In this document: positions 5,301-34,194 of the stretch, one piece after another
Layout of the letters: each line of letters opens with the position of its first letter
How positions within the stretch are numbered: position 1 is the first letter of the stretch
DNA from: Pseudobdellovibrionaceae bacterium
GTDB taxonomy: Bacteria; Bdellovibrionota; Bdellovibrionia; Bdellovibrionales; UBA1609
DNA: 45,060 nucleotides
Direction of reading: 5' to 3'
Assembly (NCBI GenBank): GCA_030591685.1
Contig: JAUVAX010000017.1
Location: 1 to 45,060, forward strand
The notes under the pieces: model-generated
The model's input: only the letters and a program-made list of their open reading frames with translations
What the model was told of the DNA's origin: nothing
The model's database searches: none
Translations under genes and position numbers: made by a program

Positions 5301-6456
5301 ATATTTAGCTGCGGCGAGTTTTATATTATTAATAGTTTCTTGTCAGTCATCTGAAAAGCCTTACCAAACGACAAGGGGACCTAGCTCTGAGGGTGAACTG
5401 CCTATTAAGTTTTCTCAAGCTCAAATAAGTATGATGAAGGATATGTTTTTAGCAGATCAAGTGCCAGGCACCCAAAAATTAAAAGTCACTACTGAGTTTC
5501 GCTCGGACTATAAAAATAAGGATTTTATTAAAAGAGCTAAAAACGCTATAAAACGCTCTATGATGAAGACCTTTCAAGCGGAAAACCCAAGTCGTGATGA
5601 GGATAATGATAAAAATAAAGACGATTTTTCAAGCCGCTTAAAGGAAAACCTAATAAAGGCACTAATGTCAGAATTTGTATTTAATTTAAAATTTTACAAG
5701 CTCATAAATGGTAATATATCGTTTAGCGTATTTTTGCTCCCAGAGCCAGTGGACAGTGATAATTTATTTAACGAGTACAATAATAATAACTTTGTAGATT
5801 TAAATCACTTTTCTGATTTCTCTGACATTGGTAAAGAGGCAGGGGGAATTATAAATGCCCTAAATTTAAAGTACTCTGAGCCGGGTGAGTATGTTGATGG
5901 TTATAAATATTTAGGGGGTGCTATTTTTTTGAATGTTAATTTTGTAGACCTTGGCGTTCTTAAAAAAGAAATTTTAAATGGTGAAATTGTTTACAGAAAG
6001 TACTACCGAGCCAGTGACGAGAGGTACCCTGTTAATTATGTGGCTTTGAAAACTAAACTCAAAGACGCTGCCTTTACGGGGGTGAAAACGGTAACAGTAG
6101 ACATCACTAAAGAGTTTAACCTTGCAGAGACCACGCCTAAATTAAAAGACATGCAGATCCATTTTGGTGGGCTTATGTATCATGGCAAAAGAGATTATAG
6201 CTCTAAGCTGCAAATATATGACTCTAATAATCGCGCGGTTATTGATATAAACGCACTTAATTATAACTTTGAAAGCAAGGTGTTTGATTTGGCCCGGTCA
6301 AGAACAAGGGAGACCGTAAAGTCTACAGGGGGAGGTCGAGGCTCTGGAAAGCCAATTCGGAGAAATCGTACGCCAAAATTATCAGATTTATTAAAAAATA
6401 ATAAAGACAAATTTATAGAGGCTTTACATTTAAAGAGGTTTTGGAATGAAATATAG
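5287..6456 (+). CDS. Lipoprotein of unknown function
   Basis: Lipobox IVSC at Cys19; overlaps both neighbours, consistent with an operon. Confidence 0.75.
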   Translation: MNISKYLAAASFILLIVSCQSSEKPYQTTRGPSSEGELPIKFSQAQISMMKDMFLADQVPGTQKLKVTTEFRSDYKNKDFIKRAKNAIKRSMMKTFQAENPSRDEDNDKNKDDFSSRLKENLIKALMSEFVFNLKFYKLINGNISFSVFLLPEPVDSDNLFNEYNNNNFVDLNHFSDFSDIGKEAGGIINALNLKYSEPGEYVDGYKYLGGAIFLNVNFVDLGVLKKEILNGEIVYRKYYRASDERYPVNYVALKTKLKDAAFTGVKTVTVDITKEFNLAETTPKLKDMQIHFGGLMYHGKRDYSSKLQIYDSNNRAVIDINALNYNFESKVFDLARSRTRETVKSTGGGRGSGKPIRRNRTPKLSDLLKNNKDKFIEALHLKRFWNEI

Positions 6457-8572
6457 CGCACTGTTAGTTATTTTTGTGACTCTGCCACTTTTTGCAAAAT
6501 TTGATGTTCAAGATCGAATTTTAGCTCAAGAAGTGTTGTATGATAATTATGAGGCTGTATTTGGTGACTCTAAGTATGCGCGGATCGACGAGTTTAAGAA
6601 ACATGTGAGGTCTTTAAAGCGCTCCAAAAAAAAATCAGTGAGTAAGTACTTAATGGCATTACAAGATAAGGTGCCCGTTAAATTTTTAATGCCTATGGTT
6701 TACTGGAAGGTTATAGATCCGAACAATGAAAAGCTAAGGCAGGTTTTTAAACTTTTTATGAGTTACCGGTTGAATGTATTAAGAGATGTCATCGATGACC
6801 CTCTTGAAACCAAAGACAAAAAAGTGAGGGCGTTGGCACTGCTTAGAACAATTTTAAACTCTCAAGTAGTAACAAGTAATAATATTTCGACTCAATCAAA
6901 GGGCCCTATAAAACGAGCCTCCTCAAGGCTTGCAAACGCTCAAGGCCGCTCATCTTTTATTAATGGGGTCTTGTCTGAACCATTGATAAGCACCCCCATT
7001 TCACATGTTGAAACTAAATCATTAAGCTGGTTAGGGTATATACCTGGTAACAAGGTAGAGCATATTAGCAAAAATGACGTGAGTGTGATGCGTATAGAGT
7101 GGATAAATGAAAACGTCATATTTAATAATTTAAATAGGGGTATTGAATGGGATAAGCCCCATTTTAAAATGCCCGAGAGTGTGAGCGCAATAGGCAACCC
7201 TGTGTTTAAAGACCCTGTGTTTGCTCGTATTAGGGATATGGTCCGCGACGCTAAAGAGTCAATTTTTATAGATATATTTTTGTTCGGCGGCACAATGGGT
7301 GCCACCCTATCAAAGTACATTGTTGAGAAAACAATTAGTGAAAATAAGAAAAACAATAAATTTAAAACACTAATACTTCACGATTTTGCCACTAATTATA
7401 ATATGAAGCCCGAGATGATGCCTATATTTAATTATTTGCGAGATGAAATTAAGGGAAATGAGTACTTAAAGTCATGCCAGTGCTTGATACTTTTACAGGC
7501 AAATATTCAGAGGCACACTCCGGGAGTACCTTTTGGACTATCAAACCTTGTACCTAAAACTAAAGAAGCTTTTGAAATGATTGAGCAAAAAAATACTTAT
7601 TATGAGTCTAAAATTGACCACTCAAAAGTTATTGTTGTGGATGCAAAATCAGACAGGCCGAAGGCTTACTTTGGCTCAAAAAATTGGTCTGACCATAGTG
7701 GGGCCTATTATTATGATGATGTTATGTATGTAGAGGGGCCTGGGGCTGCTCTTGTACAGTCCTCTTACTACTACGATGTAGAGGCGGCTTTAACAACAGA
7801 TGCTTTTGAAAAAAGCAGGTTTTTCTTTAGAAGTCAGGGGTTCTCAAATGACCACTACTTGGCAAGAAGTTCAGAAATTTTAGACTTCATGAAGATTAAG
7901 AGGAAATACTACCCTGCTGTTGGCAATCAAGTGGTGAGATTTGCAGAATCAAATGTGGATGGCACGGTAAAGAATGTACGTAATATGATAATAAATATGA
8001 TTGAAAAAGCAGAGAGTTATATTTATATGGAGCAGTTATTTATTTACGATAAGTATATAAATGACGCCCTTATAAAGAAAAGGAAAACTCACCCTAAAGT
8101 AGAGATACGTATTCTCGCCGACCATAATGGAAATTTTGAAATGAATGGGTTTCCGAACACCATGTTTATAGCTGAGTTGCAAGCTGTAGAGGTTAACGTT
8201 CGTGCATGGAGAACAGAGCACAGCGAGGCAACCTTTCCTGACGGCACCAAAAGAATGTATCACCAGGAGAACCATAGAAAGATCTCATCAGTGGATGGAA
8301 AGATAATGATGGTGGGGTCCTCAAACATGAACCCCGACACCTTTCAGGGAAGCTTTAGAGAGTTTGGTGCCCAGGTTTATGACACTGTTGAAATTGAAAA
8401 ATTTGAATCACGATTTAAATCAGCCTGGAGTGACAGTGATAAGACTGAGAAGTTTGTAGTGAAAAATATGAAGGTCAAAGGCCATGAGTTTTCTAAAGAG
8501 TTAACAGAGCTGTTTAATAGCTTTATTCGCCAGCTTGTTAGAATTAAAGATGATCTGGAAAAACGCCATTAG
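6446..8572 (+). CDS. Secreted phospholipase D superfamily protein
   Basis: Two HKD motifs: HSKVIVVD..GSKN and HRKISSVD..GSSN; signal peptide MKYSALLVIFVTLPLFA. Confidence 0.9.
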   Translation: MKYSALLVIFVTLPLFAKFDVQDRILAQEVLYDNYEAVFGDSKYARIDEFKKHVRSLKRSKKKSVSKYLMALQDKVPVKFLMPMVYWKVIDPNNEKLRQVFKLFMSYRLNVLRDVIDDPLETKDKKVRALALLRTILNSQVVTSNNISTQSKGPIKRASSRLANAQGRSSFINGVLSEPLISTPISHVETKSLSWLGYIPGNKVEHISKNDVSVMRIEWINENVIFNNLNRGIEWDKPHFKMPESVSAIGNPVFKDPVFARIRDMVRDAKESIFIDIFLFGGTMGATLSKYIVEKTISENKKNNKFKTLILHDFATNYNMKPEMMPIFNYLRDEIKGNEYLKSCQCLILLQANIQRHTPGVPFGLSNLVPKTKEAFEMIEQKNTYYESKIDHSKVIVVDAKSDRPKAYFGSKNWSDHSGAYYYDDVMYVEGPGAALVQSSYYYDVEAALTTDAFEKSRFFFRSQGFSNDHYLARSSEILDFMKIKRKYYPAVGNQVVRFAESNVDGTVKNVRNMIINMIEKAESYIYMEQLFIYDKYINDALIKKRKTHPKVEIRILADHNGNFEMNGFPNTMFIAELQAVEVNVRAWRTEHSEATFPDGTKRMYHQENHRKISSVDGKIMMVGSSNMNPDTFQGSFREFGAQVYDTVEIEKFESRFKSAWSDSDKTEKFVVKNMKVKGHEFSKELTELFNSFIRQLVRIKDDLEKRH

Positions 8573-21216: not shown

Positions 21217-21630
21217 TTAAATACTCATATTAGGGCAGAGGGCTTTTAAGGTCTCTAGGGCGTGCCTGACAGGCCGAGATGTTTTTTTATAACTTGTTTT
21301 TGGGGGGAAGCCGAATACAAATAAAATCCCATCTCTATGTGCGCTACATATGCGAGTACTCACTTTTACTGTCTTAATGCTCGCAAAGGCCTCTTTAAGT
21401 GAGAGGTAGTATTTGTACTTTTCTCGTGTAGATTTAGTTTTTAATTTAAAGATATATTCTTTTAATTTCTCGACTTCTTTTACTTTTAGAGCCACTGTTT
21501 TTTTATTTTTTATACGGGTTTTGTATTTTTGTAAGGTCGCCTCCACAGTTTTAAGGCTAGTTTCTTTTGCAAAACTAATTAGGCTAAAAGAAAGTATTAT
21601 TAATAAGGTTAGTTTTCGAACCCGTGACAT
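21217..21630 (-). CDS. Small basic secreted hypothetical protein
   Basis: Signal peptide ending ISFA; two Cys; overlaps the end of the upstream gene. Confidence 0.65.
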   Translation of the reverse strand: MSRVRKLTLLIILSFSLISFAKETSLKTVEATLQKYKTRIKNKKTVALKVKEVEKLKEYIFKLKTKSTREKYKYYLSLKEAFASIKTVKVSTRICSAHRDGILFVFGFPPKTSYKKTSRPVRHALETLKALCPNMSI

Positions 21631-23339
21631 CTAAGTCCTCCCTCTCCATTTTTAGCTTTGCCATAGCCCTCCATGTCAAAGCCACCACCTTCAATTAAAA
21701 GTAATTTATCATGTGCCATCATGGAGTAACTCTTCTCACTCGAAGTTACTATTGTCCCCCTCCAAAAACGACCGGCGGCTTTTGACGAGTATTCAAAATC
21801 TTTTTTTGAGACCTTTCCAGGAATGTACTTACCGTTTTTTAAAGCGCCCTCCGACTTTAAGAAACTACAGAGTTCATTTATCGTTTTCCCTGGTCCTCTG
21901 TGGTAAGCAAGCATGGTGAGTTTAGCTTTTAAACCTCGTTTTATTTCTTCAGGTAGGGCTTTTAAATTACACTTCTTATATCCGCCAGTCACCGTTCCCC
22001 TAAGGTGGTTATCCATATAGTATTCAAAAGTTTTATAACCCATAAATCCTAAAAACAAAGACCTTTCAGGGTTGTGTTTTGGGTCAATGAGCGCGCACTT
22101 GTTTTTAACGTTGGCATATTTCTTTAAATCCTCTTTATTTTTAATATGTTTATTGTACTTTTGCCCACATTTTTTTCCTTTAGTGAGCACTTGGGCTACA
22201 TTATTATAAATATCACCCAACTCGCCCGCAGGATTTTTATTTTTATCAAGGTATGTTGCCAGCTGAGCAATTCCAGCACTGGCTCCAAACTTACCCTCTC
22301 TGTTGTACCTGTTAATATGAAACTGTGATTCATAGTTTAAATTAACAAAAATGTTTTCAGCGACGACTTCTAAACATTGAGAGAGCTCGTTAAAAGTATT
22401 TACAATTCTATTATGATAATCATTGTTAACACATGGTGGTTGGTCGTTGGGGACTCCTTTGCAAGTACTATAATTGCCACCAGCAGGGTTAAACTGAGAT
22501 CGTTTAATACATTCAGATATCTGTTGAGGTGAAAGATTGCCAGGCCCTTTAGCATCATTGTTAAAGGGAGTGTTTTCATATTCTTTTATTACAAATTTGT
22601 TTTTGCACGTATTATCGGTCAGTACAGGGGTAAGGGGGGGAGGTTTTGGATCCTCTTCGCAGACGCCATCACAAATTTCTCCCTCAGTAACATCAACACC
22701 AACAATTACAGCATGAGGGGGCACTTTGCCAGTTGTGACGGGGGAAGGGTATTGGCTCTGATCCCCGCCACCGCCCGGAGGAGGATTGACTATTATAGGG
22801 TCTGGTGGAGGATTGACTATTATAGGGTCTGGAGGAGGATTGACTATTATAGGGTCTGGTGGAGGATTGACTATTATAGGGTCTGGATCAGAACCCCCTC
22901 CGCCTCCGGGACGCTTTTTTCTTGGTCTAAAAAGATTAAAGGTACTTCTTAAAAAAGATGAGGATATGTTGGATATTTGCATGCTTTTGTAGGGGTTTGT
23001 AAATGGCGTAAACCCACACGAATTTTGATAAGTTAAGCTCAGATTAACATTCACAAGTGTGGGGCTTGGAACATTATTTACCCGAGGGTTTATGGGGTAA
23101 GGGCAGTACGCCCCATTTGGTGTGTTCGTGCCCGGAAAGTTCATATAACGTGGCTGATTCATCTGAGGGTAAAAGTACGAGGCGGGCTGTCTATCGGTCT
23201 TGGCAACTTGTAAAACATACGATACGTCATTAGCGTTGTTGCTTGAATTTTCGCCGCTATGTTGAACACTTGCGTGATCACTACACGCCATAAAGCTAAA
23301 AGCTATTAAACTACATAAAAGTACCAGAGGCTTTCTCAT
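21609..23339 (-). CDS. Lipoprotein with a Pro-rich linker and C-terminal lytic transglycosylase (SLT)-like domain
   Basis: Lipobox FMAC; NYESQF (catalytic Glu-Ser), AGIAQL, LAYHRGPG match the lysozyme-fold SLT motifs. Confidence 0.7.
   Translation of the reverse strand: MRKPLVLLCSLIAFSFMACSDHASVQHSGENSSNNANDVSYVLQVAKTDRQPASYFYPQMNQPRYMNFPGTNTPNGAYCPYPINPRVNNVPSPTLVNVNLSLTYQNSCGFTPFTNPYKSMQISNISSSFLRSTFNLFRPRKKRPGGGGGSDPDPIIVNPPPDPIIVNPPPDPIIVNPPPDPIIVNPPPGGGGDQSQYPSPVTTGKVPPHAVIVGVDVTEGEICDGVCEEDPKPPPLTPVLTDNTCKNKFVIKEYENTPFNNDAKGPGNLSPQQISECIKRSQFNPAGGNYSTCKGVPNDQPPCVNNDYHNRIVNTFNELSQCLEVVAENIFVNLNYESQFHINRYNREGKFGASAGIAQLATYLDKNKNPAGELGDIYNNVAQVLTKGKKCGQKYNKHIKNKEDLKKYANVKNKCALIDPKHNPERSLFLGFMGYKTFEYYMDNHLRGTVTGGYKKCNLKALPEEIKRGLKAKLTMLAYHRGPGKTINELCSFLKSEGALKNGKYIPGKVSKKDFEYSSKAAGRFWRGTIVTSSEKSYSMMAHDKLLLIEGGGFDMEGYGKAKNGEGGLRCHGFEN
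22777..22884. repeat. 4 x 27-bp coding tandem repeat (DPIIVNPPP)
   Basis: Unit GG[A/T]GGAGGATTGACTATTATAGGGTCT; third base alternates A,T,A,T. Confidence 0.97.
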
Positions 23340-23586: not shown

Positions 23587-24087
23587 CTAAATATCCGGAA
23601 AGCAACTCTCCACCTGAGCGCTTGAGGCCTGAAAGGCAATGGCTCCAAGCTCCTTTAAGTACAGCTCAAACACTTGCTCTTTAGAGTACTTAGGGTAAAG
23701 CTCCTCAAGGTGTGCGAGTAGCTCAGATTCAGCCTTTTTTATAATTTTACCAAAATAGGAGTCTTTGTTTTTTTCTAAGTAATAGAGCACAAAAATATAA
23801 GGCATATGTACAAGGTCTGATAAAATCTTTTTTAACCTTTCATGCAGGCCCATTTTACTATTGGGGTCTGAGTTAAAAAAAATACCCACCATGTACCGGT
23901 AGGAGTGCTCCAAAATATCATCTTTATCTTTACCAAAATAATAGTAAATTAATGAGCGTGTGATACCTGAAAACCGTGAAAGGTCACTGACTGTCCATTT
24001 AAGGTGCCCACGGTTGACCTCAAGTCGCAACACAGCATTACATACTGAAAAGTAAACTTCGTCTTTGTTTTTGGTTCGTTTGCTCAT
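23587..24087 (-). CDS. TetR-like transcriptional regulator
   Basis: WTVSDLSRFSGITRSLIYYYFGKDKDDIL HTH; divergent from the GH3 operon. Confidence 0.85.
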   Translation of the reverse strand: MSKRTKNKDEVYFSVCNAVLRLEVNRGHLKWTVSDLSRFSGITRSLIYYYFGKDKDDILEHSYRYMVGIFFNSDPNSKMGLHERLKKILSDLVHMPYIFVLYYLEKNKDSYFGKIIKKAESELLAHLEELYPKYSKEQVFELYLKELGAIAFQASSAQVESCFPDI

Positions 24088-24131
24088 TTAATCCCTTTTA
24101 AACACATATTTGAACAGTAACCCTTACATTC

Positions 24132-24178
24132 TGTCAAAAACAAATATACTTTTGACAAGTTCTCAACGAGGGTGTCAA
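24132..24178. promoter_or_regulatory. Candidate operator inverted repeats in the tetR/GH3 divergent region
   Basis: TGTCAAAA-N10-TTTTGACA (24132-24157) and TTGACA-N15-TGTCAA (24152-24178). Confidence 0.5.
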
Positions 24179-24249
24179 CGATCTGCAATGACTTGGCCAT
24201 TAGGCTCACGTACAACAAAGTATATCAATTTTTAAATGGGGGGGAACAC

Positions 24250-25776
24250 ATGTTAGAACAAGTCACTCGACATATCGGAGAGAGGTATTTAGCCAAAGTT
24301 TTTTCAGATGGTCAACTTGACCAATCAGCCACTCAACGGGCTCAAGAAAAAAACTTTCAATATTTAAAAAGAAAACTTAAAGGTACTAAAATCTATGAGG
24401 ATTTAAAGTTAAACTTAATTTTTTCGTACAATGAGTTTGTAAAACATGTGCCAGTAAAAGATTACACTTTTTATAAGCCCTACGTTGACGAAGTTTTAGA
24501 GGGCAAACCAAATATTCTATTTAAAGATAAAATCGAGTACATCGGACTTACATCAGGTACAAGCGGTCAAAACAGTAAAAAAATACCCTATAACGAAAAA
24601 ATGATCTCGTGCTTTTTAAGTGCCCAAAGGCGAGTGGCCAGTGTTATTAACGTCAACGAAGTAGATGTGGACATAATTTCAGCTGACAGGTTAGCCTTTG
24701 GCTCTTCGCCTGTATGTTATGAAGAGAACAGCTTAAAGCATGGCTACATTTCAGGGATTTTAAGCAGTCGCGCCCCAAGGTTATTAAAAAAGCATTGCTA
24801 CCCCTCTGAAGAGACACTCAATATACCTGATTGGGACTCTAAAATTAACGAGGTCATGAAGGAAACTCTAGATAAGGACATTCAGGTTGTCAGCGGCATA
24901 CCGACTTATATTATTAGTGTGTTCGAGGCTATCCTAGAAAAAACAGGTGCCCGTCAAATTTGTGAGATCTGGCCTAACATGAAGGTGTTTATTTATGCAG
25001 CAACACCTATTAAGCAATATGAATCTAGAATTAATGAGCTCGTTGGTCGTCAATTAAGTTACTATGGGTTGTACGCGTCGACAGAGGCCCCAATTGGTAT
25101 TCCATCATCAAAGTTTAAAAATGGGGCTCAATCTTATACCCTTAATCCTGATTTATTATACACCTTTGCCCCTGTAGATGACGACAAAGAAAACCTGGGT
25201 GTTCAAGACCTTAAAACTGACAACACTTATTATGTGAACATTGGTTGCCATAATGGTTTTGTACACTATGCGATGAAGGACATAATAAAAATTCAACAGA
25301 CCGAAGGGCAAATTTTATTTGATATTATTGGACGAAAAAATACAGGCATTAATGTGGCTGCTGAAAAGGTGTCTGATGAAAACCTGTTAAACACAGTATT
25401 TCAAACAAAAAAAGATACAAATACAGATATAAGGCATTTCTTTGTAGCTCCAAATACTTCGGGTACAAAAGCTAATTATCAATGGAGCTTATTTGTGCCA
25501 AATCCCAGTGACAAATTGGCCGAGCAGCTATCAAAGGCCTTAGACTTAGCCCTTTGCAATATTAACTTAGATTATAAAGACTGCCGTGATGACGGAGTGA
25601 TAGACGCAGCCACTGTTGTTTTGCACAAGCCTGAGGTGTTGAACCCTTACTTTGAGGCCAACAGGTCTAAAGGGCAATTTAAACCCAAGACTTCTTTTTT
25701 GTCAGAAGAGGAGTTCAATAGTTTTTGGGCTTTAAATTTTGAGGCCAAAAGGCCTCATGGGGAGCTGCTACAATGA
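24250..25776 (+). CDS. GH3 family acyl-acid amido synthetase
   Basis: VPVKDY, GLTSGTSGQNSKKIP, GYISGI, SGIPTY, EIWPNM, YASTE, YAMKDII..IIGR, DYKDCR..GQFK; ATG 24250 after a G7 RBS. Confidence 0.88.
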   Translation: MLEQVTRHIGERYLAKVFSDGQLDQSATQRAQEKNFQYLKRKLKGTKIYEDLKLNLIFSYNEFVKHVPVKDYTFYKPYVDEVLEGKPNILFKDKIEYIGLTSGTSGQNSKKIPYNEKMISCFLSAQRRVASVINVNEVDVDIISADRLAFGSSPVCYEENSLKHGYISGILSSRAPRLLKKHCYPSEETLNIPDWDSKINEVMKETLDKDIQVVSGIPTYIISVFEAILEKTGARQICEIWPNMKVFIYAATPIKQYESRINELVGRQLSYYGLYASTEAPIGIPSSKFKNGAQSYTLNPDLLYTFAPVDDDKENLGVQDLKTDNTYYVNIGCHNGFVHYAMKDIIKIQQTEGQILFDIIGRKNTGINVAAEKVSDENLLNTVFQTKKDTNTDIRHFFVAPNTSGTKANYQWSLFVPNPSDKLAEQLSKALDLALCNINLDYKDCRDDGVIDAATVVLHKPEVLNPYFEANRSKGQFKPKTSFLSEEEFNSFWALNFEAKRPHGELLQ

Positions 25777-26372
25777 ACCCTATAAACTTATTTTTTCTGG
25801 GTGTATTGGCCACTTTACCCATGGGACCTGCGGGTTTTAATGTGGCTTCAAGTTGTGTCAAAAAGCAGGAGTTCCCTAAAAGAGCGTTCACAGGATTTTT
25901 AGTTGCCGAAATGGTTTATTTAATGCTGGCCTTTATGCTTAAAGACCTGTTTTTAGCTGAGATTGTTTTTTGGAAACTTGTGACTTCAATAATTGCAGGA
26001 TTATTCATTACTCTGTTTGGGGTTTACATAATTCAAAAAAAGAAAAGAAAAGACTCAGAGCTGCCTACGCCGGCATCCGGGTTTAAAAAAAGCTTTTTAA
26101 TCACTCTTAGTAACCCAAGTATTTTAATTTTGCATTTAACAATTATTTTACAGGTGCAACATCTTCAGGCTATGAGCCAGGTCACATTAGTGGGTAGTTT
26201 TTTATTAGGTGGCGTTTGTGCATTGCTGTTTATCATTGCCGTGCTGTTGTATCAAAAAAAGTTTTTTTTCGAATACGGGGCACGTATTGAAAAAATATGT
26301 GGGTGGCTCTTGTTTTTTATGGGGTCAGGTTTGTTAATTATTCAAATACAAAAAGTCATTGCAGGGGTATAA
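25773..26372 (+). CDS. LysE/RhtB family exporter
   Basis: PMGPAG in TM1, FKKSFLITLSNP, several hydrophobic segments; ATGA overlap with GH3. Confidence 0.85.
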   Translation: MNPINLFFLGVLATLPMGPAGFNVASSCVKKQEFPKRAFTGFLVAEMVYLMLAFMLKDLFLAEIVFWKLVTSIIAGLFITLFGVYIIQKKKRKDSELPTPASGFKKSFLITLSNPSILILHLTIILQVQHLQAMSQVTLVGSFLLGGVCALLFIIAVLLYQKKFFFEYGARIEKICGWLLFFMGSGLLIIQIQKVIAGV

Positions 26373-26374
26373 AA

Positions 26375-28423
26375 ATGAAAAAGTTAGTTTTAATTATGGT
26401 TTGTTTAAGTGCGCAGTTTAGTTTTGCAAACATTGAAAATAATAACTGTCAATTGACCCGATCAAAAGATGGCCAAAAGCTTTATAAGTGTTCAATGCTT
26501 GGTGGGGCTAAGGATATAAATATACTTCACGTTAAAGGAGATATTGTTAAGACCGCCTATTACCACGGGTTATTTTTGTCTAGTGAAATTGACAGAGCTT
26601 TATTTAAGGGCGTTTTTGATAAAAAATCACGAGCGGTAAAATCCCTTAACAAAAAACAGCGCAAGCAGTTTGAAAGTCTTAATAGTTGTTTATTAGCTCA
26701 TTATAAAAAAAACACTTCTAGCCAGTTTATTAAAATGAATAAAAACCTAGTTCGAGGCATGAGAGATGCCGGCAACACAACCATTAGTGAAAAGAACTTT
26801 ATAGAGGCTAATTATTTAGTTGAAACTTCAATTTACTTTGATGCTTTAGAAAAAAAAATGACAAAAAGCCCCGCCAAAGCTAAGGCCGAGTTATTGGCTC
26901 GCTGTGGGCCTCGGTTTGTTGTTAAAGGTATATTTGGGATATTGAAAAAGATTTCAAAGCCCTTTAAAGAGTTAAAAATGGGCTGCACAGGTGTTGCCGC
27001 TTCGGCCCCAATGACAAGTGATGGGGGGTTAGTTTTAGGCCGTAATTTTGACACTGGCCTTTTAGGTTACTTTGAAAAAGAGCACCTTATACTCATCCAT
27101 GATTTACCTAATAAAACAAGAGTGGTTGGCTTTGCAAGTGCCGGGCTTCATTACGCCGCAGGAGTGAGTGGTTTTAACTCTCATGGTTTAGTCGCCTCAC
27201 TGCATGAGCTACAAACAGAAGCGGTAACAACGGGCGCTCGAACGGTCTGCAAACGTGGTGGGTGTAGGAATGGATCAAAAAGGATTAAAACAGAGGTGAC
27301 CCCCTATTTACTACACCGGGTACTTATGGAGGCTAAAACTTTAGACCAAGCCATTAGCCTTATTAAAAGCACAAGGGGCCTGGGTGCATGGACTATTTTA
27401 ATAGCAGATAGTAAGACCAATGAAATTGCCTCTATTGAAATTTCAGGTAAAAAAGTAGCTGTAGCCAGACGGGTTAGAAACTCTCATATGGCTCAAAGTA
27501 ATCATTTTTTTAGTAAAGTAGGTAAAAAGCATGGTTATGAATATAGTTTAAATAAAACCCTTGAGACCCGTGGGCGGTTAAATCATGTAAAAAGTAATTT
27601 GCAAGCTTCAGAGGGGCGAGTGGATTACCAATGGGTGATTGATATGCTTTCAGGGCACACTGATGATTATGTAGGCCCAAGGTCGTTTGGTCGCACAACG
27701 ACAAAGGTATATACAGCGGTGACGCATGTTATGGTCCCTCAGCGTAATGAGGCCTGGATGAGTTTAGGGGAGTCCTACCCCACCACCTCATCTACATTTT
27801 TTGGAATAAGGTTTAACACCGACAAAGAAGTACCCTTTGAGTTGATTGGCACAACAAAAGCTGCAAAATTTGAGGGGCGAGACAACTGGTACCGATCCCT
27901 AAAGTACTACGTGAGAGCTTATATTAACCAACAGTCGGCGAATATAAATCCCTCTTTAAATATGTCTGTAATTGAAAATCTAAACTTAGCTATTCAGTGG
28001 TCTTTAAAAGATAATATTGTCGAAATGCCTTATTACTTTATGCGAGCGCGCATGCGGGCTCAAATGTCGGCTTTAAGCCATTTTGAGAAAAACGATACAT
28101 TAGCTCGGCAGCAGTTATTAAGTGCTCAAAGTGACTGGTTATTTTTGTTAAAAAGCCTACAGCAGGGTCGTGTACAGCTGCACCCTTATCAAGAGTCTTT
28201 AGTGCACCTTTGGCTTTACCGTACAAGTGAACTGTTAACACAATTAGGAGCTACAGGGGTGAGCCCAGGGCCCCATTATAAAGCGGCTACAGAGGGTTTT
28301 AAAGCTTTAAAAATGGATCATAAAAAGCATTTTTACTTTAATGAACTTATAAGGACCCTGCGTCGCCCTTATACTTTTAACCAAGCTAAGAATGATGAGA
28401 TTCATTTTGGTACTGTCGAATAA
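26375..28423 (+). CDS. Secreted C45-family / NAAA-like Ntn hydrolase (autoproteolytic amidase or acyltransferase)
   Basis: Signal peptide MKKLVLIMVCLSAQFSFA; G|CTG autocleavage site (Cys at 26984), GRNFD, GVSGFNSHGL, QSNHF; ATG 26375 two nt after the LysE stop. Confidence 0.85.
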   Translation: MKKLVLIMVCLSAQFSFANIENNNCQLTRSKDGQKLYKCSMLGGAKDINILHVKGDIVKTAYYHGLFLSSEIDRALFKGVFDKKSRAVKSLNKKQRKQFESLNSCLLAHYKKNTSSQFIKMNKNLVRGMRDAGNTTISEKNFIEANYLVETSIYFDALEKKMTKSPAKAKAELLARCGPRFVVKGIFGILKKISKPFKELKMGCTGVAASAPMTSDGGLVLGRNFDTGLLGYFEKEHLILIHDLPNKTRVVGFASAGLHYAAGVSGFNSHGLVASLHELQTEAVTTGARTVCKRGGCRNGSKRIKTEVTPYLLHRVLMEAKTLDQAISLIKSTRGLGAWTILIADSKTNEIASIEISGKKVAVARRVRNSHMAQSNHFFSKVGKKHGYEYSLNKTLETRGRLNHVKSNLQASEGRVDYQWVIDMLSGHTDDYVGPRSFGRTTTKVYTAVTHVMVPQRNEAWMSLGESYPTTSSTFFGIRFNTDKEVPFELIGTTKAAKFEGRDNWYRSLKYYVRAYINQQSANINPSLNMSVIENLNLAIQWSLKDNIVEMPYYFMRARMRAQMSALSHFEKNDTLARQQLLSAQSDWLFLLKSLQQGRVQLHPYQESLVHLWLYRTSELLTQLGATGVSPGPHYKAATEGFKALKMDHKKHFYFNELIRTLRRPYTFNQAKNDEIHFGTVE

Positions 28424-28456
28424 CTTGCAAAATTGATAAGAGTTGATTAACAATGA

Positions 28457-28486
28457 GCCCCTGATTTTACTTTTAGGGGTTTTTTT
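28457..28486 (+). terminator. Intrinsic terminator-like hairpin after the C45 gene
   Basis: CCCCTGA-loop-TTAGGGG followed by T7. Confidence 0.5.
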
Positions 28487-29486
28487 GTTTGTCCAGTTAG
28501 AGCATGAGGTTTTAAAGGCTTTAAAAGCGCATCGCGCTATGGGGCCGAACATTTACCTGGCCGTGTCTGGAGGGGTAGACTCTATGGCCCTACTCGAGGT
28601 GTTGAGTCGCATAAAAAAAGCCTTGAAGTTAAACATCATAGTTTTACATGTTCATCATGGTCCGACGAGGTCAGAGGCTCTAAAGGTGTTTCGTAATAGA
28701 TGCTTTCGCTTGGTAAGGGCCGCTTGTAAGGAGCGAAATTTAGAGTTTTTATCCAATGTCAGTGAGGTGAGTACTATTAAAAGTACAGCCAAATTTACGA
28801 TTAAACCCTCTACGGGACTTAAAAGTGAGGCTGATTGGCGCGGGTTTCGACGGCAGCTTTTTTCAACCTGGGTGCCAAAGGGTGGGGTTATTGCCACTGC
28901 CCATCATGCCGATGATCTACTGGAAACAAGGCTGATTCATATGATCAGAGGGGCTGGGGAGCTCGGGGTTTCATCATTAAAATTTAAGAGTAATAATTAT
29001 ATTCGTCCGCTTTTAGTTTATAGCAAGTCAGATCTTAAAAACTATTGTAAGAAAAGAGGGGTGGGTTTTTTAAACGACCCCACAAATAGCAGCACTGACC
29101 CTTTGCGAAACTGGATTCGAAATAGCTGGCTTAAGGACTTAGAAAAAAAGCGTAAAGGTGGTGTGAAAACCCTTTCTGGCTCAATAGAGAGGCTCTTGCA
29201 GCAAGCCAGAGGTGGGGGGCTAGACCCTTCTGAGCTCATTAACGAGGAGGGTATTGATTTGAGAGCACTTCGAACCTTAAGCCTAGCCGAAAAAAAGCAA
29301 GTCCTAGCAAAGTACATGAACGACCTTAAGCTTAATAACTACACAACCTCACACATTACAGAGGTCTTAAAGCGCCTTGACAGTCCAGAGAAAAAACACA
29401 ACTTTAGACTGCTTAAGTGTACATGGACAGCAGATGCGCGGCGTATAAAAGCTATTCTAAACTCCGGGACTAAGGGTACAAAGTGA
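28485..29486 (+). CDS. tilS: tRNA(Ile)-lysidine synthetase
   Basis: AVSGGVDS PP-loop, HVHHG, TAHHADDLLET, IRPLL, DPTN, RNWIR; start uncertain (TTG 28485 with AGGGG; ORF open from 28443). Confidence 0.93.
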   Translation: MFVQLEHEVLKALKAHRAMGPNIYLAVSGGVDSMALLEVLSRIKKALKLNIIVLHVHHGPTRSEALKVFRNRCFRLVRAACKERNLEFLSNVSEVSTIKSTAKFTIKPSTGLKSEADWRGFRRQLFSTWVPKGGVIATAHHADDLLETRLIHMIRGAGELGVSSLKFKSNNYIRPLLVYSKSDLKNYCKKRGVGFLNDPTNSSTDPLRNWIRNSWLKDLEKKRKGGVKTLSGSIERLLQQARGGGLDPSELINEEGIDLRALRTLSLAEKKQVLAKYMNDLKLNNYTTSHITEVLKRLDSPEKKHNFRLLKCTWTADARRIKAILNSGTKGTK

Positions 29487-29570
29487 CTACATGTTGGAAG
29501 TGTATGTGCTTAGCTGTTATTCTATAACCAGTACATTTTAAAATACTTTGTCGCTAAGGAGACATAAAAT

Positions 29571-31538
29571 ATGCGTCAATCTCAAAAAACACTCGCCTTG
29601 TGGGCACTGCTCATCGTTGTAGTTCTTGTGTTATTTCAATTAAATGATGAGCGTGGTAAAAAAGTTATTAAGGATATGAATTATCCCACTTTTGTAACGG
29701 CAGTTGAAAAGGGCCATATTAACACCGTCACCTTTAACCGTGAAAACGGTAGAATTAAAGGAGAGGTTAAACCTGAGTTTGAAACCCAGTACAACGGTTC
29801 ATCATTTGATATTGTTGGCAACACTGATGCTGAGGGTTTTAAAATTGTGCGCGAAAAGGGTTTGATCCCAAAGTACGAGTCCTCTGAAGGGTCCATGTTA
29901 ACGAACTTTTTAATCAGTTGGTTGCCCATGATTTTAATCTTTGGGATGTTTATATTTTTTATGAAGCAACTGCAAGCTGGCGGTGGTAAAGCCATGAGCT
30001 TTGGTAAAAGCCGAGCTAAAATGCTAACAGAAAACAAACTTAAAGTGACCTTTAAAGATGTCGCCGGGGTAGAAGAGGCAAAAGAAGAGCTCGAAGAAAT
30101 AGTGCAGTTTTTGAAGGATCCTAAAAAGTTCACCCGCCTTGGGGGTCGTATACCTAAAGGGGTTTTGCTTGTGGGTTCTCCAGGGACGGGTAAGACACTT
30201 CTAGCAAGAGCTATTGCAGGAGAGGCCGGAGTCCCATTTTTTACAATAGCAGGGTCTGATTTTGTTGAGATGTTTGTAGGTGTGGGTGCGAGTCGAGTTC
30301 GAGATTTATTTGAACAAGGCAAAAAAAATGCACCTTGTATAATTTTTATCGATGAAATAGACGCTGTGGGTAGGCATCGTGGTGCCGGCATGGGCGGCGG
30401 TCATGATGAGAGAGAGCAAACGCTAAACCAACTCCTTGTTGAAATGGACGGATTTGAAGGGTCTGATGGGGTGATTTTAATTGCCGCCACAAACAGGCCT
30501 GACGTTTTGGACCCAGCCCTTTTAAGGCCGGGTCGTTTTGATCGAAGAGTAGTTGTGCCCAAACCTGACATACTTGGCCGTGAGCTTATTTTAAAGGTCC
30601 ATTCAAAAAAAGTCCCCCTATCAGATGGGGTTGATTTAAATATTATTGCTAAGGGAACCCCTGGTTTTTCAGGTGCTGATCTTGAAAACTTAGTGAATGA
30701 GTCGGCTCTTTATGCCGCTCGAAAAAATAAACATCAAGTAGACATGAATGATTTTGAGATAGCTAAGGATAAAATACTAATGGGTGGAGAGCGACGCTCT
30801 ATGGTCATTAGTGAAGAGGACCGCCGTGTAACGGCTTTTCATGAGGCCGGTCACACCATCGTCGGTCAGTCGTTAAAGGGGCTCGACCCCATACATAAGG
30901 TGACCATTGTCCCCAGGGGTATGGCTTTAGGTGTAACTCAAACACTCCCTGAAAAAGAAATGTTAAATATGTCAAAAACAAAAGCGACAAGTATGATTGC
31001 TTTTTTATTTGGTGGCCGCGCGGCCGAGGAAGTGGCCTTAAATGATGTAACTACAGGGGCTAGTAACGATATAGAGCGGGCGACAGAGCTGGCTCGCTCC
31101 ATGGTGTGCGAATGGGGCATGAGTGATAAAATAGGACCCATATCATTAGAAAAAAAGGAAGGCCCCGTGTTTTTAGGGATGCAGTCTAATGAGCGTCGTG
31201 ATTACTCTGATGAAAAGGCCAAAGAAATTGATTTAGAAGTAGATCGCCTTATAGGGGATGCTTATAAGAGTGCTAAAAAGATCCTTAAAGATAAACGCCC
31301 CATACTTGATGAAATGGCTAAAGCATTATTAGAGCTTGAAACCATCACAGGCAAAGATGTTCAAATGTTGATGGATGGCGACAAGGTAGAGGCTCTCATA
31401 GAAAAGCGAGCCACGGCAAAAGCTAAACTCGAAGAAGAAAACGAACGCGCCCGTGTTGAATCTGAAAAAAAGGAAGCTCAAGAAGAAAAAAAGAAGGGTA
31501 GTGACCCTGTAGGCAACACAGACCCTGTAACAGCATAA
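29571..31538 (+). CDS. ftsH: ATP-dependent zinc metalloprotease FtsH
   Basis: Two TMs, GSPGTGKT Walker [21 protein letters not shown]. Confidence 0.98.
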
Positions 31539-31559
31539 AAAGCAACCAAGGATGGCATC

Positions 31560-32363
31560 ATAGACCACTTTATTGAGAGCATAAAAATAACTGTAGGGCA
31601 GTTTCAAGTTCAAGATGTTGCAGATATTTTTTTGGTGTGGTTTGTTGTTTATAGAGTCCTTATTTTATCTAAAAGGTCTGGAGCTGTTCAAATACTTTCA
31701 GGGATTGGTTTTCTCGCCATTGCCTATTTACTCAGTATATGGCTTGAGTTGGTCACGTTTAACTGGCTTTTAGAAAAGTTTTTTTCAAATCTATTTTTAA
31801 TCACAGTTATTTTGTTTCAAGGAGAGATCAGAAGAGCGTTGGCACAAATTGGCAGTAACCCCTTTTTGTCAGGGGTCACCTTGGGCGAAGAAGCTCATAT
31901 TATTGATGAGCTCGCAAAGGGGGTTATGCAACTGGCTCAAAAGGGTTGTGGGGCACTTATTGTTATAGAGCGTGAAATTGATTTAGAGTATTTTATTGAA
32001 ATGGGTACAGAGATGGATGCCACTTTAAAATCAGAAACTCTTTACTCTATATTTCAACCTCATAGCCCCATACACGACGGGGCTGTCATCATCCGTGGGG
32101 GCCGTATATATGCTGCTGGGTGCTTTTTGCCTCTGAGCAAAAACCCGTTATTAGATAAAAACTTAGGGACTCGCCACCGAGCGGCCGTTGGTTTAACAGA
32201 AGAAACGGATGCCTATGTTTTTGTAGTCAGTGAAGAGAGCAACAATGTAGGCATAGTACACAGTGGTCAGTTAGAGCCTGATTTGGACCATGCACAAATT
32301 AGACAGGCAATAAGTGATATTTTTAAAATTAAAATTAGAAGCTCAGATCGGAGCTTTGCATGA
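31560..32363 (+). CDS. cdaA: Diadenylate cyclase CdaA/DacA
   Basis: Three N-terminal TMs, FQGEIRRAL, HDGA, GTRHRAA, VVSEE. Start uncertain: first standard codon is TTG 31632 but the frame is open from 31539 and ATA 31560 has an AAGGA RBS. Confidence 0.9.
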   Translation: MDHFIESIKITVGQFQVQDVADIFLVWFVVYRVLILSKRSGAVQILSGIGFLAIAYLLSIWLELVTFNWLLEKFFSNLFLITVILFQGEIRRALAQIGSNPFLSGVTLGEEAHIIDELAKGVMQLAQKGCGALIVIEREIDLEYFIEMGTEMDATLKSETLYSIFQPHSPIHDGAVIIRGGRIYAAGCFLPLSKNPLLDKNLGTRHRAAVGLTEETDAYVFVVSEESNNVGIVHSGQLEPDLDHAQIRQAISDIFKIKIRSSDRSFA

Positions 32364-32767
32364 CTTTAAAACAGCGATTTAATAAATACGTACTGCATAA
32401 TGGGAGCTATAAACTCGTAGCTCTTTTTGTGAGCTTAGTGCTCTGGGTAACGCTGCTTGGTCGTGCTGATTTGGTATTAAGTCATAAAATGGAACTAAAA
32501 TTTTCAATGATCCCATCAAGAGCCATCACCAATAGAGTTTATAAAAATGTTCAGGTTAAAATTTCAGGCCCAAGATCAGGCCTAAAGAGGTTCACAGAAA
32601 ATGAAAGATTAATTTTTCTTAATTTAGAAAAACTACCATTAGGTAAAAGTAGAGTCCTTATTAACAAAGAGTCTTTAAATTTACCAGTCGGTGTTAAAGT
32701 GATTTCTATTAAGCCTCCAAGCATTAAAATTATTATTGAGGAAATAAAAAATAAGCGTAAAAATTAA
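32360..32767 (+). CDS. cdaR: CdaR/YbbR-like protein (single domain)
   Basis: YKLVALFVSLVLW TM, VQVKISGP, LPVGVKVISIKP; lies between cdaA and glmM. Confidence 0.8.
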   Translation: MTLKQRFNKYVLHNGSYKLVALFVSLVLWVTLLGRADLVLSHKMELKFSMIPSRAITNRVYKNVQVKISGPRSGLKRFTENERLIFLNLEKLPLGKSRVLINKESLNLPVGVKVISIKPPSIKIIIEEIKNKRKN

Positions 32768-32769
32768 GG

Positions 32770-34194
32770 ATGGTTAAAAAAGTGACAAAGAAAAAAACTA
32801 TGAATTCAAGCAATAGAGAAACAAGCAATATACCAAAGCTTTTTGGTACAGATGGCATACGGTGCACTTCAAATACATACCCTATGACACCTGATTTGGT
32901 CTTAAAAGTGGGACAAGCCATGGGACATTTGTTGCAAAAGCAACCCAGTCGTAGGGGGAGTGATAAAAGAACTGTTTTAATTGGCAAAGACACACGTATT
33001 TCAGGTTATATGTTAGAGCAAGCTCTCTCGGCAGGTTTAAACTCTATGGGTGTTCGGGTGATTTTGGTGGGCCCCTTGCCCACACCAGGCATTGGTTACC
33101 TGGCACGAAATATGCGCGCGGATGCTGGGGTTGTTATCTCGGCCTCGCACAATGCTTTTTATGATAATGGGATAAAAATATTTGGTTCTGATGGTTTTAA
33201 GGCCCCCGCTGAGTGGGAGAGGGAGATTGAGCGACTTGTTGCTATTGAGGATCTATCAAAACTACTAGCCCCATCAGAAAAAATAGGCCGCACACGTCGT
33301 ATTGAAGACGCCGCTGGCAGGTACATTGTGTATGCTAAAAGCTCATTGCCTTACAATTTATCTCTTGATGGTTTGCGCATAGTTTTAGATTGCGCCAATG
33401 GAGCTTCATATAAAGTGGCCCCGGCTATTTTTGAAGAGCTGGGTGCAGAGGTGATTGTTTTAGGTGATACCCCAAATGGTTACAATATTAATGACAAGGT
33501 GGGGGCACTGTACCCTCAACAAACCTGTGATGCTGTTATAAAATTTAGAGCGGACCTTGGCATTAGTTTAGATGGCGATGCCGACAGAGTTATAATGATT
33601 GATGAAAAAGGGGATGTTGTAAACGGAGATCATATACTGGCAATATGTGCTCTTCACTTGGCCAGTCAAAATAGACTGCCTAAAAAAACAATTGTCGCTA
33701 CTGAGATGAGTAATTTTGGCTTAGATAAAATTATGAAACAAAACGGTATAAAGGTTGTGCGTACAGATGTTGGTGATAAGTACGTTGTTGAAGAAATGCG
33801 AAAATCTGGTTTTGTGCTTGGTGGGGAGCAGTCGGGGCATATTATATTTTTAGATCACTCCACAACAGGTGACGGTTGCGTGGCCGCATTGAACGTTCTT
33901 GGTGTTATGGTGGGAGAGGGTAAAAAACTCTCAGAATTAAGAAGTGTCTTTGAGGACTCACCACAGGTGTTAATTAATACCCATATCACTCATAAGTTAC
34001 CACTTGAAGAAATTGAGGGTTATACTGAATTAATCGAAAAAGTACGTAAGCAGCTTCAGTCCAATGGGCGAATATTTGTTCGGTACTCCGGTACAGAGCC
34101 TTTAGTCAGAGTTCTTGTTGAGGGGCCTGACAAGCGGTTAATTACAGGCATGGCTGAGGACGTGTCTAATTTTTTACAACGAGCACTGTCTTAA
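32770..34194 (+). CDS. glmM: Phosphoglucosamine mutase
   Basis: FGTDGIR, GKDTRISG, ISASHN, DGDADR, GGEQSGH, RYSGTEP. Confidence 0.97.
   Translation: MVKKVTKKKTMNSSNRETSNIPKLFGTDGIRCTSNTYPMTPDLVLKVGQAMGHLLQKQPSRRGSDKRTVLIGKDTRISGYMLEQALSAGLNSMGVRVILVGPLPTPGIGYLARNMRADAGVVISASHNAFYDNGIKIFGSDGFKAPAEWEREIERLVAIEDLSKLLAPSEKIGRTRRIEDAAGRYIVYAKSSLPYNLSLDGLRIVLDCANGASYKVAPAIFEELGAEVIVLGDTPNGYNINDKVGALYPQQTCDAVIKFRADLGISLDGDADRVIMIDEKGDVVNGDHILAICALHLASQNRLPKKTIVATEMSNFGLDKIMKQNGIKVVRTDVGDKYVVEEMRKSGFVLGGEQSGHIIFLDHSTTGDGCVAALNVLGVMVGEGKKLSELRSVFEDSPQVLINTHITHKLPLEEIEGYTELIEKVRKQLQSNGRIFVRYSGTEPLVRVLVEGPDKRLITGMAEDVSNFLQRALS

Follow-up and report, generated by a model that had tools for sequence, protein, structure and literature searches.

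The window analysed here is a stretch of 45,060 nucleotides (contig JAUVAX010000017.1 of assembly GCA_030591685.1) from a Pseudobdellovibrionaceae bacterium, in which four adjacent genes encode a TetR-like regulator, a GH3-family synthetase, a LysE-family membrane protein and a C45-family enzyme. Judged by sequence comparison, these four genes form a conserved, co-regulated unit in Bdellovibrionota. The TetR-like regulator of 166 amino acids (aa) is encoded on the minus strand (23587..24087, as given in the list of open reading frames, ORFs), and the plus strand carries a GH3-family acyl-acid amido synthetase of 508 aa (24250..25776), a LysE-family inner-membrane protein of 199 aa (25773..26372), and a C45-family cysteine N-terminal nucleophile (Ntn) hydrolase/acyltransferase of 682 aa with predicted secretion (26375..28423). 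Their orthologues in Bdellovibrio bacteriovorus HD100 are Bd1991, Bd1990 (CAE79840), Bd1989 and Bd1988 (CAE79838), respectively. The GH3 and LysE-like genes overlap by ATGA, and a gap of 2 nt separates the latter from the C45 gene. A terminator-like hairpin with a T-run (28455..28488, plus strand) follows and extends into the region where the next frame, tilS, starts; for the hairpin itself (28455-28482) we obtained z = −4.0, and equal stability was reached in 0 of 200 shuffles. The four frames, the overlap, the gap and the hairpin had all been listed in a first-pass annotation of this DNA, and each was found where it had been placed. The ORF caller puts the GH3 start at GTG 24172; we favour ATG 24250, because most homologues have 500-510 aa and a run of G residues lies at 24238-24244. 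All four genes are single-copy in the genome of the window, according to tblastn.

The distribution of the unit was evaluated in 301 genomes, an even draw of the phylum Bdellovibrionota, with clade thresholds (500 bits for C45 and 470 bits for GH3) that were placed post hoc at gaps in the scores. The C45 clade was present in 27 of these genomes (>500 bits; next best 400) and the GH3 clade in 26 (>470 bits; next best 270), all of them within the 27; in the remaining C45 genome, GH3 is interrupted by a contig end. In 23 of the 27, GH3 and C45 lie less than 700 bp apart. We also collected 32 loci by means of the GH3 or the C45 alignment, so that the query gene is present by construction; one of them (L059) duplicates another (L052), and many come from one genus. 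GH3, LysE-like and C45 genes occur together in 27 of these loci and all four genes in 24, with flanks that vary by lineage. The incomplete loci comprise contigs that are short or cut (L048, L053, L060, L061), a GH3 remnant (L054), one truly split locus (L042), and two, L058 and L063, in whose flank no TetR gene was found. At L048:228-1737, GH3 is split into two overlapping frames and the remaining unit is intact. Across lineages, only the LysE-like, C45 and TetR-like genes recur in the 32 loci and 16 further stretches, and no gene for a nonribosomal peptide synthetase (NRPS) or polyketide synthase (PKS) recurs in the examined loci. The named homologues come from Bdellovibrio, Halobacteriovorax and Bacteriovorax. 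The unit is patchy: none of 19 further genomes from the family of the window has it, compared with 13 of 20 in genus g56 and, among 60 nearer relatives, only G051. The TetR gene can be divergent, upstream in line, or downstream of C45, and in L065 a TetR-C45 pair is divergent from a GH3-LysE pair. In eight Bdellovibrio loci a gene for an MMPL plus LolA-like fusion of ~1015 aa follows the TetR gene on the same strand (e.g., L035:3291-6347), overlapping the TetR stop in most of them; this MMPL gene had no tblastn match in the window's genome, although four weak MMPL-family matches exist there. An AMP-binding ligase follows C45 in L075.

The GH3 protein scored above the cut-off for PF03321 (84.9 against 23.6) and PF23572 (36.6 against 23.6), and just under it for PF23571 (23.0 against 23.6). 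Its structure model has a pLDDT of 90.6, all top Foldseek rows are plant GH3 proteins, and no signal peptide was seen. Plant GH3 enzymes (4epl, 4epm, 5kod) have the same fold, the same set of three nucleotide-binding motifs and likewise a C-terminal GQ(F/Y)K; identity with them is 14-19%, and the substrate pocket is not assignable from their structures. The motifs quoted in the first-pass annotation, TSGTSG and YASTE in GH3 and G|CT and GRNFD in C45, are present, and across the 55 homologues compared for each protein the key positions vary little or not at all. For GH3, the three nucleotide-binding motifs, as listed in PMC12493201, correspond to T101SGTSGQNSK110, Y275ASTE279 and G336FVHYAMKD344, in which S102, T104, G106, K110, Y275, T278, E279, G336, Y340 and D344 are invariant in 55/55 rows; the lysine of GQFK is invariant as well. 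The cluster GH3s group in a single clade of 36 rows with a support of 99 in a quick version of the tree (49 rows, four repeated or near-repeated loci excluded). The OlsH model NF052613 gave only 149 bits with the window GH3, against a cut-off of 620, and the best E value among the 55 homologues was 2.7e-54, indicating at the sequence level that the window GH3 is not OlsH. A scan of the genome contigs with the single GH3 protein gave no match; a scan with the GH3 alignment did. Among wider relatives, P0212 (702 aa, one contig) is a fusion of DedA (VTT domain) with a wider-clade GH3, and the more distant Bdellovibrionota GH3 genes of L080-L089 lie near MMPL, fatty-acid desaturase/hydroxylase, KAS-III-like or PAP2 genes; these distant loci are probably other amino-lipid routes.

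The C45 protein exceeded the cut-offs of NF040521 (100.8 against 85) and PF03417 (51.9 against 23.2). The comparison of its structure model (pLDDT 91.8) with isopenicillin N acyltransferase (2x1c) gave Z 35.4 and rmsd 2.7 over 335 aligned residues, and that with N-acylethanolamine acid amidase (NAAA) and acid ceramidase gave Z 28.6. The predicted nucleophile, Cys204 (codon 26984-26986), is invariant in 55/55 rows and aligns with the first residue of the catalytic chain in NAAA (126), ceramidase (143) and bile salt hydrolase (2). R223, D226, N376 and R401 are also invariant, and are probably similar to the NAAA catalytic set. A putative signal peptide, already noted earlier in this protein only, was recognized by visual inspection of the window protein and of 22 among 87 homologues. 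The fold and the position of the cysteine nucleophile are thus like those of the three known enzymes (2x1c, 6dxw, 5u81), from which the C45 protein differs in its low identity (14-16%), its signal peptide, its conserved cysteine pairs and an added helical C-terminal part of ~190 residues. In the model this extra part, residues ~500-682, is all-helical, and the clade ends in T-x-E in 55/55 rows and in the two fusions (see below) seen over their full length (28412-28420 in the window), which suggests, as far as sequence conservation goes, a role for the free C-terminus of C45. A PDB sequence search with the C45 alignment returned only a DnaK helix (E 0.009), which was rejected.

The LysE-like protein scored 28.4 with PF01810 (cut-off 25.6) and matched Atlas LysE clusters at 0.95; G18, P19 and N114 are invariant in 33 rows. 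Six hydrophobic segments were counted by eye, and its C-terminus would lie in the periplasm. LysE-like and C45 genes are adjacent in 27 of the 32 loci with GH3 (in L062 two genes lie between them), and in four divergent proteins the two are fused: L063 (877-aa frame), P0353 (811 aa, found on eight contigs), P0354 (829 aa) and P0358 (807 aa). The LysE profile gave 23 bits on L063 and 35 bits on P0354, and P0353 and P0358 were called fusions from a mutual full-length match and from PGP/PPGP and NP motifs recognized by eye; two fusions scored against P0353 showed 39-42% identity. Since the hydrolase is tied in these proteins to the outer face of the transporter, a hand-over of substrate fits better than the erasing of a signal. 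In some loci, two genes without a Pfam match (845 and 554 aa) occur between LysE and C45 (L062:2671-6874, L069:7739-10566, L070:5049-6446), and C45 then has its own copy of the dyad described next.

The intergenic region contains two operator-like dyads. The proximal one, TTGACA-N15-TGTCAA (24152..24178), is exact and is the one 12-base copy in the 2.66 Mb genome; the distal one, TGAACA-N15-TGTCAA (24111..24137), lies over the TetR promoter side and has one mismatch in the GACA core and two with respect to TTGACA. The core GACA-N15-TGTC was found upstream of 30 of 31 GH3 genes, against a chance expectation of 0.0009 per region at the rate of the window's genome, and the sole miss is the locus in which GH3 is reduced to a 101-aa remnant (L054:880-1185). 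With spacers from 8 to 23 other than 15, GACA-Nn-TGTC occurred a single time in total over these upstream regions. The majority of loci have two copies, 39-42 nt apart; the 15-nt spacer within the dyad is constant across homologues, and the spacing between dyads is variable. The dyad also precedes C45 genes separated from GH3 (L061, L062/L070, L065, L074). Two C45 contigs, L068 (which ends at the gene start) and L071, have no exact dyad. All 12 of the more distant GH3 loci compared lack it, as do L080-L089, and in none of eight more distant C45 loci does a copy lie close to the gene. The first-pass annotation had pointed to palindromic sites in this region; dyads are indeed there, but the palindrome TGTCAAAA-N10-TTTTGACA (24132-24157) is only the junction between the two dyads. 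As an operator, the N10/N14 palindrome was rejected, given that TGTC-N14-GACA occurred in 0 of 31 GH3-upstream regions. From the pattern of conservation, TTGACA-N15-TGTCAA rather than that palindrome is likely the operator of the unit.

Following the geometry seen in homologues, we place a putative GH3 promoter at 24188..24216 (plus strand), with a −35-like ATGACT (24188-24193) 9 nt downstream of the proximal dyad, a spacer of 17 nt, and a −10-like TACAAC (24211-24216); transcription would then start near 24223. In an alignment of 29 rows (L054 and L059 dropped), the TA of the −10 element was at the expected offset in 23 rows, the next-best offset reaching 11, and it was so in 7 of 13 rows outside the named Bdellovibrio species plus L045. 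A consensus promoter scan of the region remained at chance level (14 vs 12.1). This geometry puts the proximal dyad near −59, an activator-like position. The possibility that the dyad is a mere pair of facing −35 boxes is disfavoured, since it precedes lone C45 genes and is followed by a separate −35/−10-like pair.

The TetR-like protein scored 21.5 bits with PF00440, below the cut-off of 24; its top Atlas clusters were TetR at 0.97-0.98, and those clusters carry PF00440 in 35-65% of their members. It belongs to a Bdellovibrionota subfamily with the helix ...TRSLIYYYFG, and its gene is present in 25 of the 32 related loci. The family was found in 17 of 18 genomes with the cluster, compared with 7 of 14 others, and the dyad lies beside 7 of 19 loci of TetR homologues with no GH3 in the stretch. 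A relaxed dyad pattern gave 39 matches against 17 for the control in 15 TetR-bearing genomes, and 43 against 50 in 45 others. In exact-match scans, each of the five genus-g56 genomes examined yielded two or three copies of the 10-base dyad and the window's genome two, and a regulon search in 10 genomes found extra sites before mixed genes, some of them inside ORFs. The conservation of the site is seen directly; as to its binder and the sign of control, we infer that the TetR-like protein binds the dyad and acts as an activator, which would probably stimulate the GH3 promoter from about −59 and limit its own gene during growth in prey. Among the additional sites, the second good dyad of the window's genome (L128:2934, G000:C47:30433) lies before a 221-aa gene with a weak DUF1664 match, which converges on a FadL-like gene. 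At L138:4635-6665 a TetR paralogue with a dyad faces a fatty-acid-hydroxylase/C92 fusion, and at L131:3090-5937 a further dyad lies ahead of genes for a different TetR, an alpha/beta-hydrolase and a thiolase. Three identical matches 3130 bp apart at G030:C2:160803-167087 point to a tandem repeat.

Published data on the Bdellovibrio orthologues place the unit in growth inside prey. With the two columns taken, from the sheet name, as attack phase and then growth phase, the reads per kilobase per million (RPKM) rise from 3.0 to 59 for Bd1990, from 0 to 46 for Bd1989, from 4.1 to 24.5 for Bd1988 and from 2.0 to 258 for Bd1991 (PMC3627812). In the proteomic series, Bd1990 is highest at 2 h (log2 +0.56) and has dropped from 4.6 to 2.1 by 7 h; Bd1988 has its maximum after 2-3 h inside prey (log2 +0.81 at 2 h), and Bd1991 is flat to −0.36. 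None of these three reaches the two-fold mark of the study on the rise (PMC12546842). Bd1990 RNA is 1.4x at entry (p 0.06) on the predatosome sheet, and Bd1988 and Bd1989 RNA are at 0.34-0.50x in host-independent growth (PMC2797640). Bd1990 is also among 15 predator-shared genes up at 30 min, listed there with no function given (PMC3526173). In a pooled insertion screen of strain 109J, with genes matched by order, the fitness W was 1.2-1.7 for C45, 1.8-3.0 (noisy) for LysE, 1.1-1.3 for GH3 and 0.57-0.87 for TetR, the median being 1.4 over 47 scored genes in one condition (PMC6561027). We also inspected RNA-run contigs on the copy in G168 (L139; 4 of 23 listed runs). Contigs of three studies break around the dyad region, ending at 4867, 4874 and 4909 and restarting at 5109, 5043 and 5059 (GH3 start, 4899); one contig of 4.3 kb takes in C45, LysE and the larger part of GH3, and a single run spans it all. 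Such contigs alone cannot show a transcript, and we did not count them as proof of co-transcription.

Taken together, these results suggest that the unit probably couples a fatty acid with an amino acid, moves the conjugate across the inner membrane and reworks it outside. This agrees with the make-inside, export and act-outside layout proposed in the first-pass annotation, which fits the locations predicted from the sequences. The reading that we favour, tentatively, is a two-enzyme relay across the inner membrane, in which the cell would make and export an N-acyl amino acid, with trans-acylation or maturation of it following in the periplasm. GH3 would adenylate a free carboxylic acid with ATP inside the cell and join it to an amino acid, as expected from family knowledge and its intact motifs; the acid would most likely be a fatty acid taken from prey. 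The LysE-like protein would transfer the N-acyl amino acid to the periplasm, where self-cleaved C45 may take the acyl group onto Cys204 and hand it to an acceptor, or mature the conjugate. The strict co-inheritance of GH3 and C45 and the LysE-C45 fusions argue that the GH3 product would serve as an intermediate or acyl carrier rather than as the final product. Neighbours of lipid type, namely the MMPL-LolA-like gene, the AMP-binding ligase, the DedA-GH3 fusion and the TetR paralogue facing the hydroxylase/C92 fusion, lend support to the relay. A more specific form of it, which we consider rather unlikely, is that the amino acid serves as an exportable acyl carrier: GH3 would load prey fatty acid without CoA or ACP, LysE would ship it, and C45 would build an amide-linked acylated product in the periplasm or the prey envelope. 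Such a mechanism, if true, would add a new route for extracytoplasmic acylation, and its control would lie with a TetR-type activator whose half-sites are two turns apart.

Several observations weigh against the relay and its proposed control. For a TetR dimer, a separation of about two helical turns between half-sites is uncommon; one of the 18 cluster genomes gave no TetR match, and the exact dyad is absent in 12 of the 19 loci of TetR homologues mentioned above. L064 has GH3 followed directly by C45, with no LysE-like gene between them, and in G156 a long distance separates the two genes, neither stretch holding a LysE-like gene. Two of the fusions, inspected by eye, retain an Ala-x-Ala-like motif at the junction, where cleavage may release C45. 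In the expression data, the growth-phase rise is common to the neighbours Bd1986 and Bd1987 (PMC3627812), and Bd1990 is not lowered in host-independent growth (0.77-1.02x; PMC2797640). In the pooled screen, insertions in GH3, LysE and C45 cost no fitness, these genes being dispensable for predation there, and the TetR insertion costs some, which an activator of dispensable genes would not explain. Finally, plain hydrolysis by C45 fits the same anatomy.

This last point bears on the idea that the unit disposes of excess acids, GH3 trapping prey-derived fatty or aromatic acids as amides, LysE exporting them and C45 hydrolysing them outside with recovery of the amino acid. We consider it an unlikely explanation, although it accounts for the anatomy and the fusions equally, and the expression and fitness data, with expression mid-growth in prey and genes dispensable in standard assays, are consistent with it. 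Plant GH3s inactivate acids through conjugation (PMC12493201). An amino-acid-binding ABC subunit is convergent after C45 in most of the nine loci carrying it; however, it lies on the other strand and is absent from the window, and a freed fatty acid could re-enter the cell, which would result in a futile cycle.

Somewhat less probable is a reverse flow, in which C45 would release acyl groups held in amide linkage by lipids or lipoproteins of the prey envelope, a product would enter through the LysE-like protein, and GH3 would re-ligate the acid to an amino acid for an amino lipid of the predator. The resemblance of C45 to NAAA, acid ceramidase and phospholipase-B-like amidases, a protein timing that suits digestion, and the finding of no OlsB-like PF13444 gene in the window's genome agree with this idea. 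Against it, LysE-family members are mostly exporters, no OlsI-like second acyltransferase is among the conserved neighbours, and so strict a pairing with one synthetase would be unnecessary for a general digestive amidase. The precedent would be OlsH, which uses free fatty acids and starts an amino lipid (PMC12493201).

The first-pass annotation had left two branches open, a conjugate-and-export or prodrug route and a signalling circuit. The former is strengthened by the LysE-C45 fusions; the latter, with an N-acyl amino acid as autoinducer, TetR as receptor and C45 as eraser, is weakened, and we now regard it as improbable. A dyad in an activator-like position before the synthase is what autoinducing loops have, and a TetR RNA strongly up in growth phase with a flat TetR protein, in the data cited above, would suit control by a ligand. 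However, the supposed eraser shares a gene run with the synthase and can be fused to the exporter, and the few exact dyads per genome leave little output for such a circuit.

It is very improbable that the relay is the activity, reported in 1978, that attaches long-chain fatty acids to prey peptidoglycan: the linkage found by Thomashow and Rittenberg is said to be an ester formed early, amide-to-ester transfer would be uphill, the unit's proteins peak at 2-3 h rather than at entry, and 7 of 20 genus-g56 genomes have no C45-clade match. It retains some appeal from the presence of a secreted acyltransferase-family enzyme and an exported acyl donor, which would suit an ATP-free compartment, and from the entry and 30-min signals of Bd1990 (PMC2797640, PMC3526173); PMC10482364 cites Thomashow and Rittenberg 1978 for acylation of the prey wall.

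Returning to the relay, its parts have counterparts in several known systems. ClbP, XcnG and ZmaM are exporter-linked prodrug peptidases, and XcnG and ZmaM carry exporter and peptidase in one chain, a design to which the LysE-C45 fusions, joining transporter and amidase, are similar. In Drosophila, Ebony, the carcinine transporter and Tan provide an adenylating amide synthetase, a transporter and a C45-family hydrolase for the same conjugate in different compartments; unlike the unit described here, that system is eukaryotic, operates between cells, uses an NRPS-like synthetase with beta-alanine, and has no shared operon or regulator. Periplasmic Ntn deacylases (PvdQ, PdnM) mature lipopeptides (PMC13592322), and in these systems, as proposed here, the cell builds an acylated precursor and exports it, deacylation or rearrangement taking place outside. 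In contrast to the PvdQ and ClbP types, the unit contains no NRPS/PKS or siderophore genes, a lone GH3 being the only synthetase, and its enzyme is a Cys-type C45 and not a Ser-type acylase or a D-amino-peptidase. By analogy, it would work like acyl-tag, export and periplasmic-processing systems, but the lack of NRPS/PKS places it outside that group.

The closest precedent for the synthetase is OlsH, described in 2025, and the earlier statement that bacterial GH3 roles are largely unclear is therefore dated: in Singulisphaera acidiphila this GH3 forms N-acyl ornithine from free fatty acid and ATP and is paired, like the window GH3, with a second hydrolase-fold enzyme (PMC12493201, in the part available, which mentions neither Bdellovibrio nor LysE). 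Apart from the low score of the window GH3 with the equivalog model, the partner here is a predicted secreted Cys-Ntn enzyme whereas OlsI is an alpha/beta-hydrolase, LysE-like and TetR-like genes belong to the unit, and neither OlsG nor OlsI is among the conserved neighbours. Our literature search, which did not reach subscription papers and bioRxiv supplements, found no published description of the GH3, LysE, C45 and TetR combination, in agreement with the first-pass annotation, and the locus tags matched one paper. We conclude that the unit is a real, undescribed variant assembled from known parts. More than 7,500 OlsH-like GH3 hits have been recorded in bacteria, and in the literature found only one of them has an assigned product (PMC12493201); the unit would be a second type of GH3 pathway, with a built-in transporter, downstream enzyme and predicted operator. 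It could supply a first function for the secreted bacterial C45 clade and for the Bdellovibrionota TetR subfamily, and could bring to light a new amino lipid or a new acyl-amide of predators and the way they handle prey fatty acids. Its orthologues belong to the model predator B. bacteriovorus (Bd1988-Bd1991), for which deletion, lipidomics and timed predation assays are routine.

The unit is flanked on one side by a secreted protein of no known family and on the other by a housekeeping run, tilS-ftsH-diadenylate cyclase-unknown-glmM (28443-34194, plus strand). The former (21609-23339, minus strand) is 576 aa long, begins with a signal-like N-terminus, contains four PDPIIVNPPP repeats and matched neither Pfam nor NCBIfam; an ES...AGIAQL stretch in its later part presumably resembles lytic transglycosylases. 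A second run with lipid- or amide-processing genes was observed at 3552-8572 (plus strand), where three overlapping genes encode a C92 permuted papain-like amidase (582 aa), an unknown protein and a phospholipase-D-like protein.

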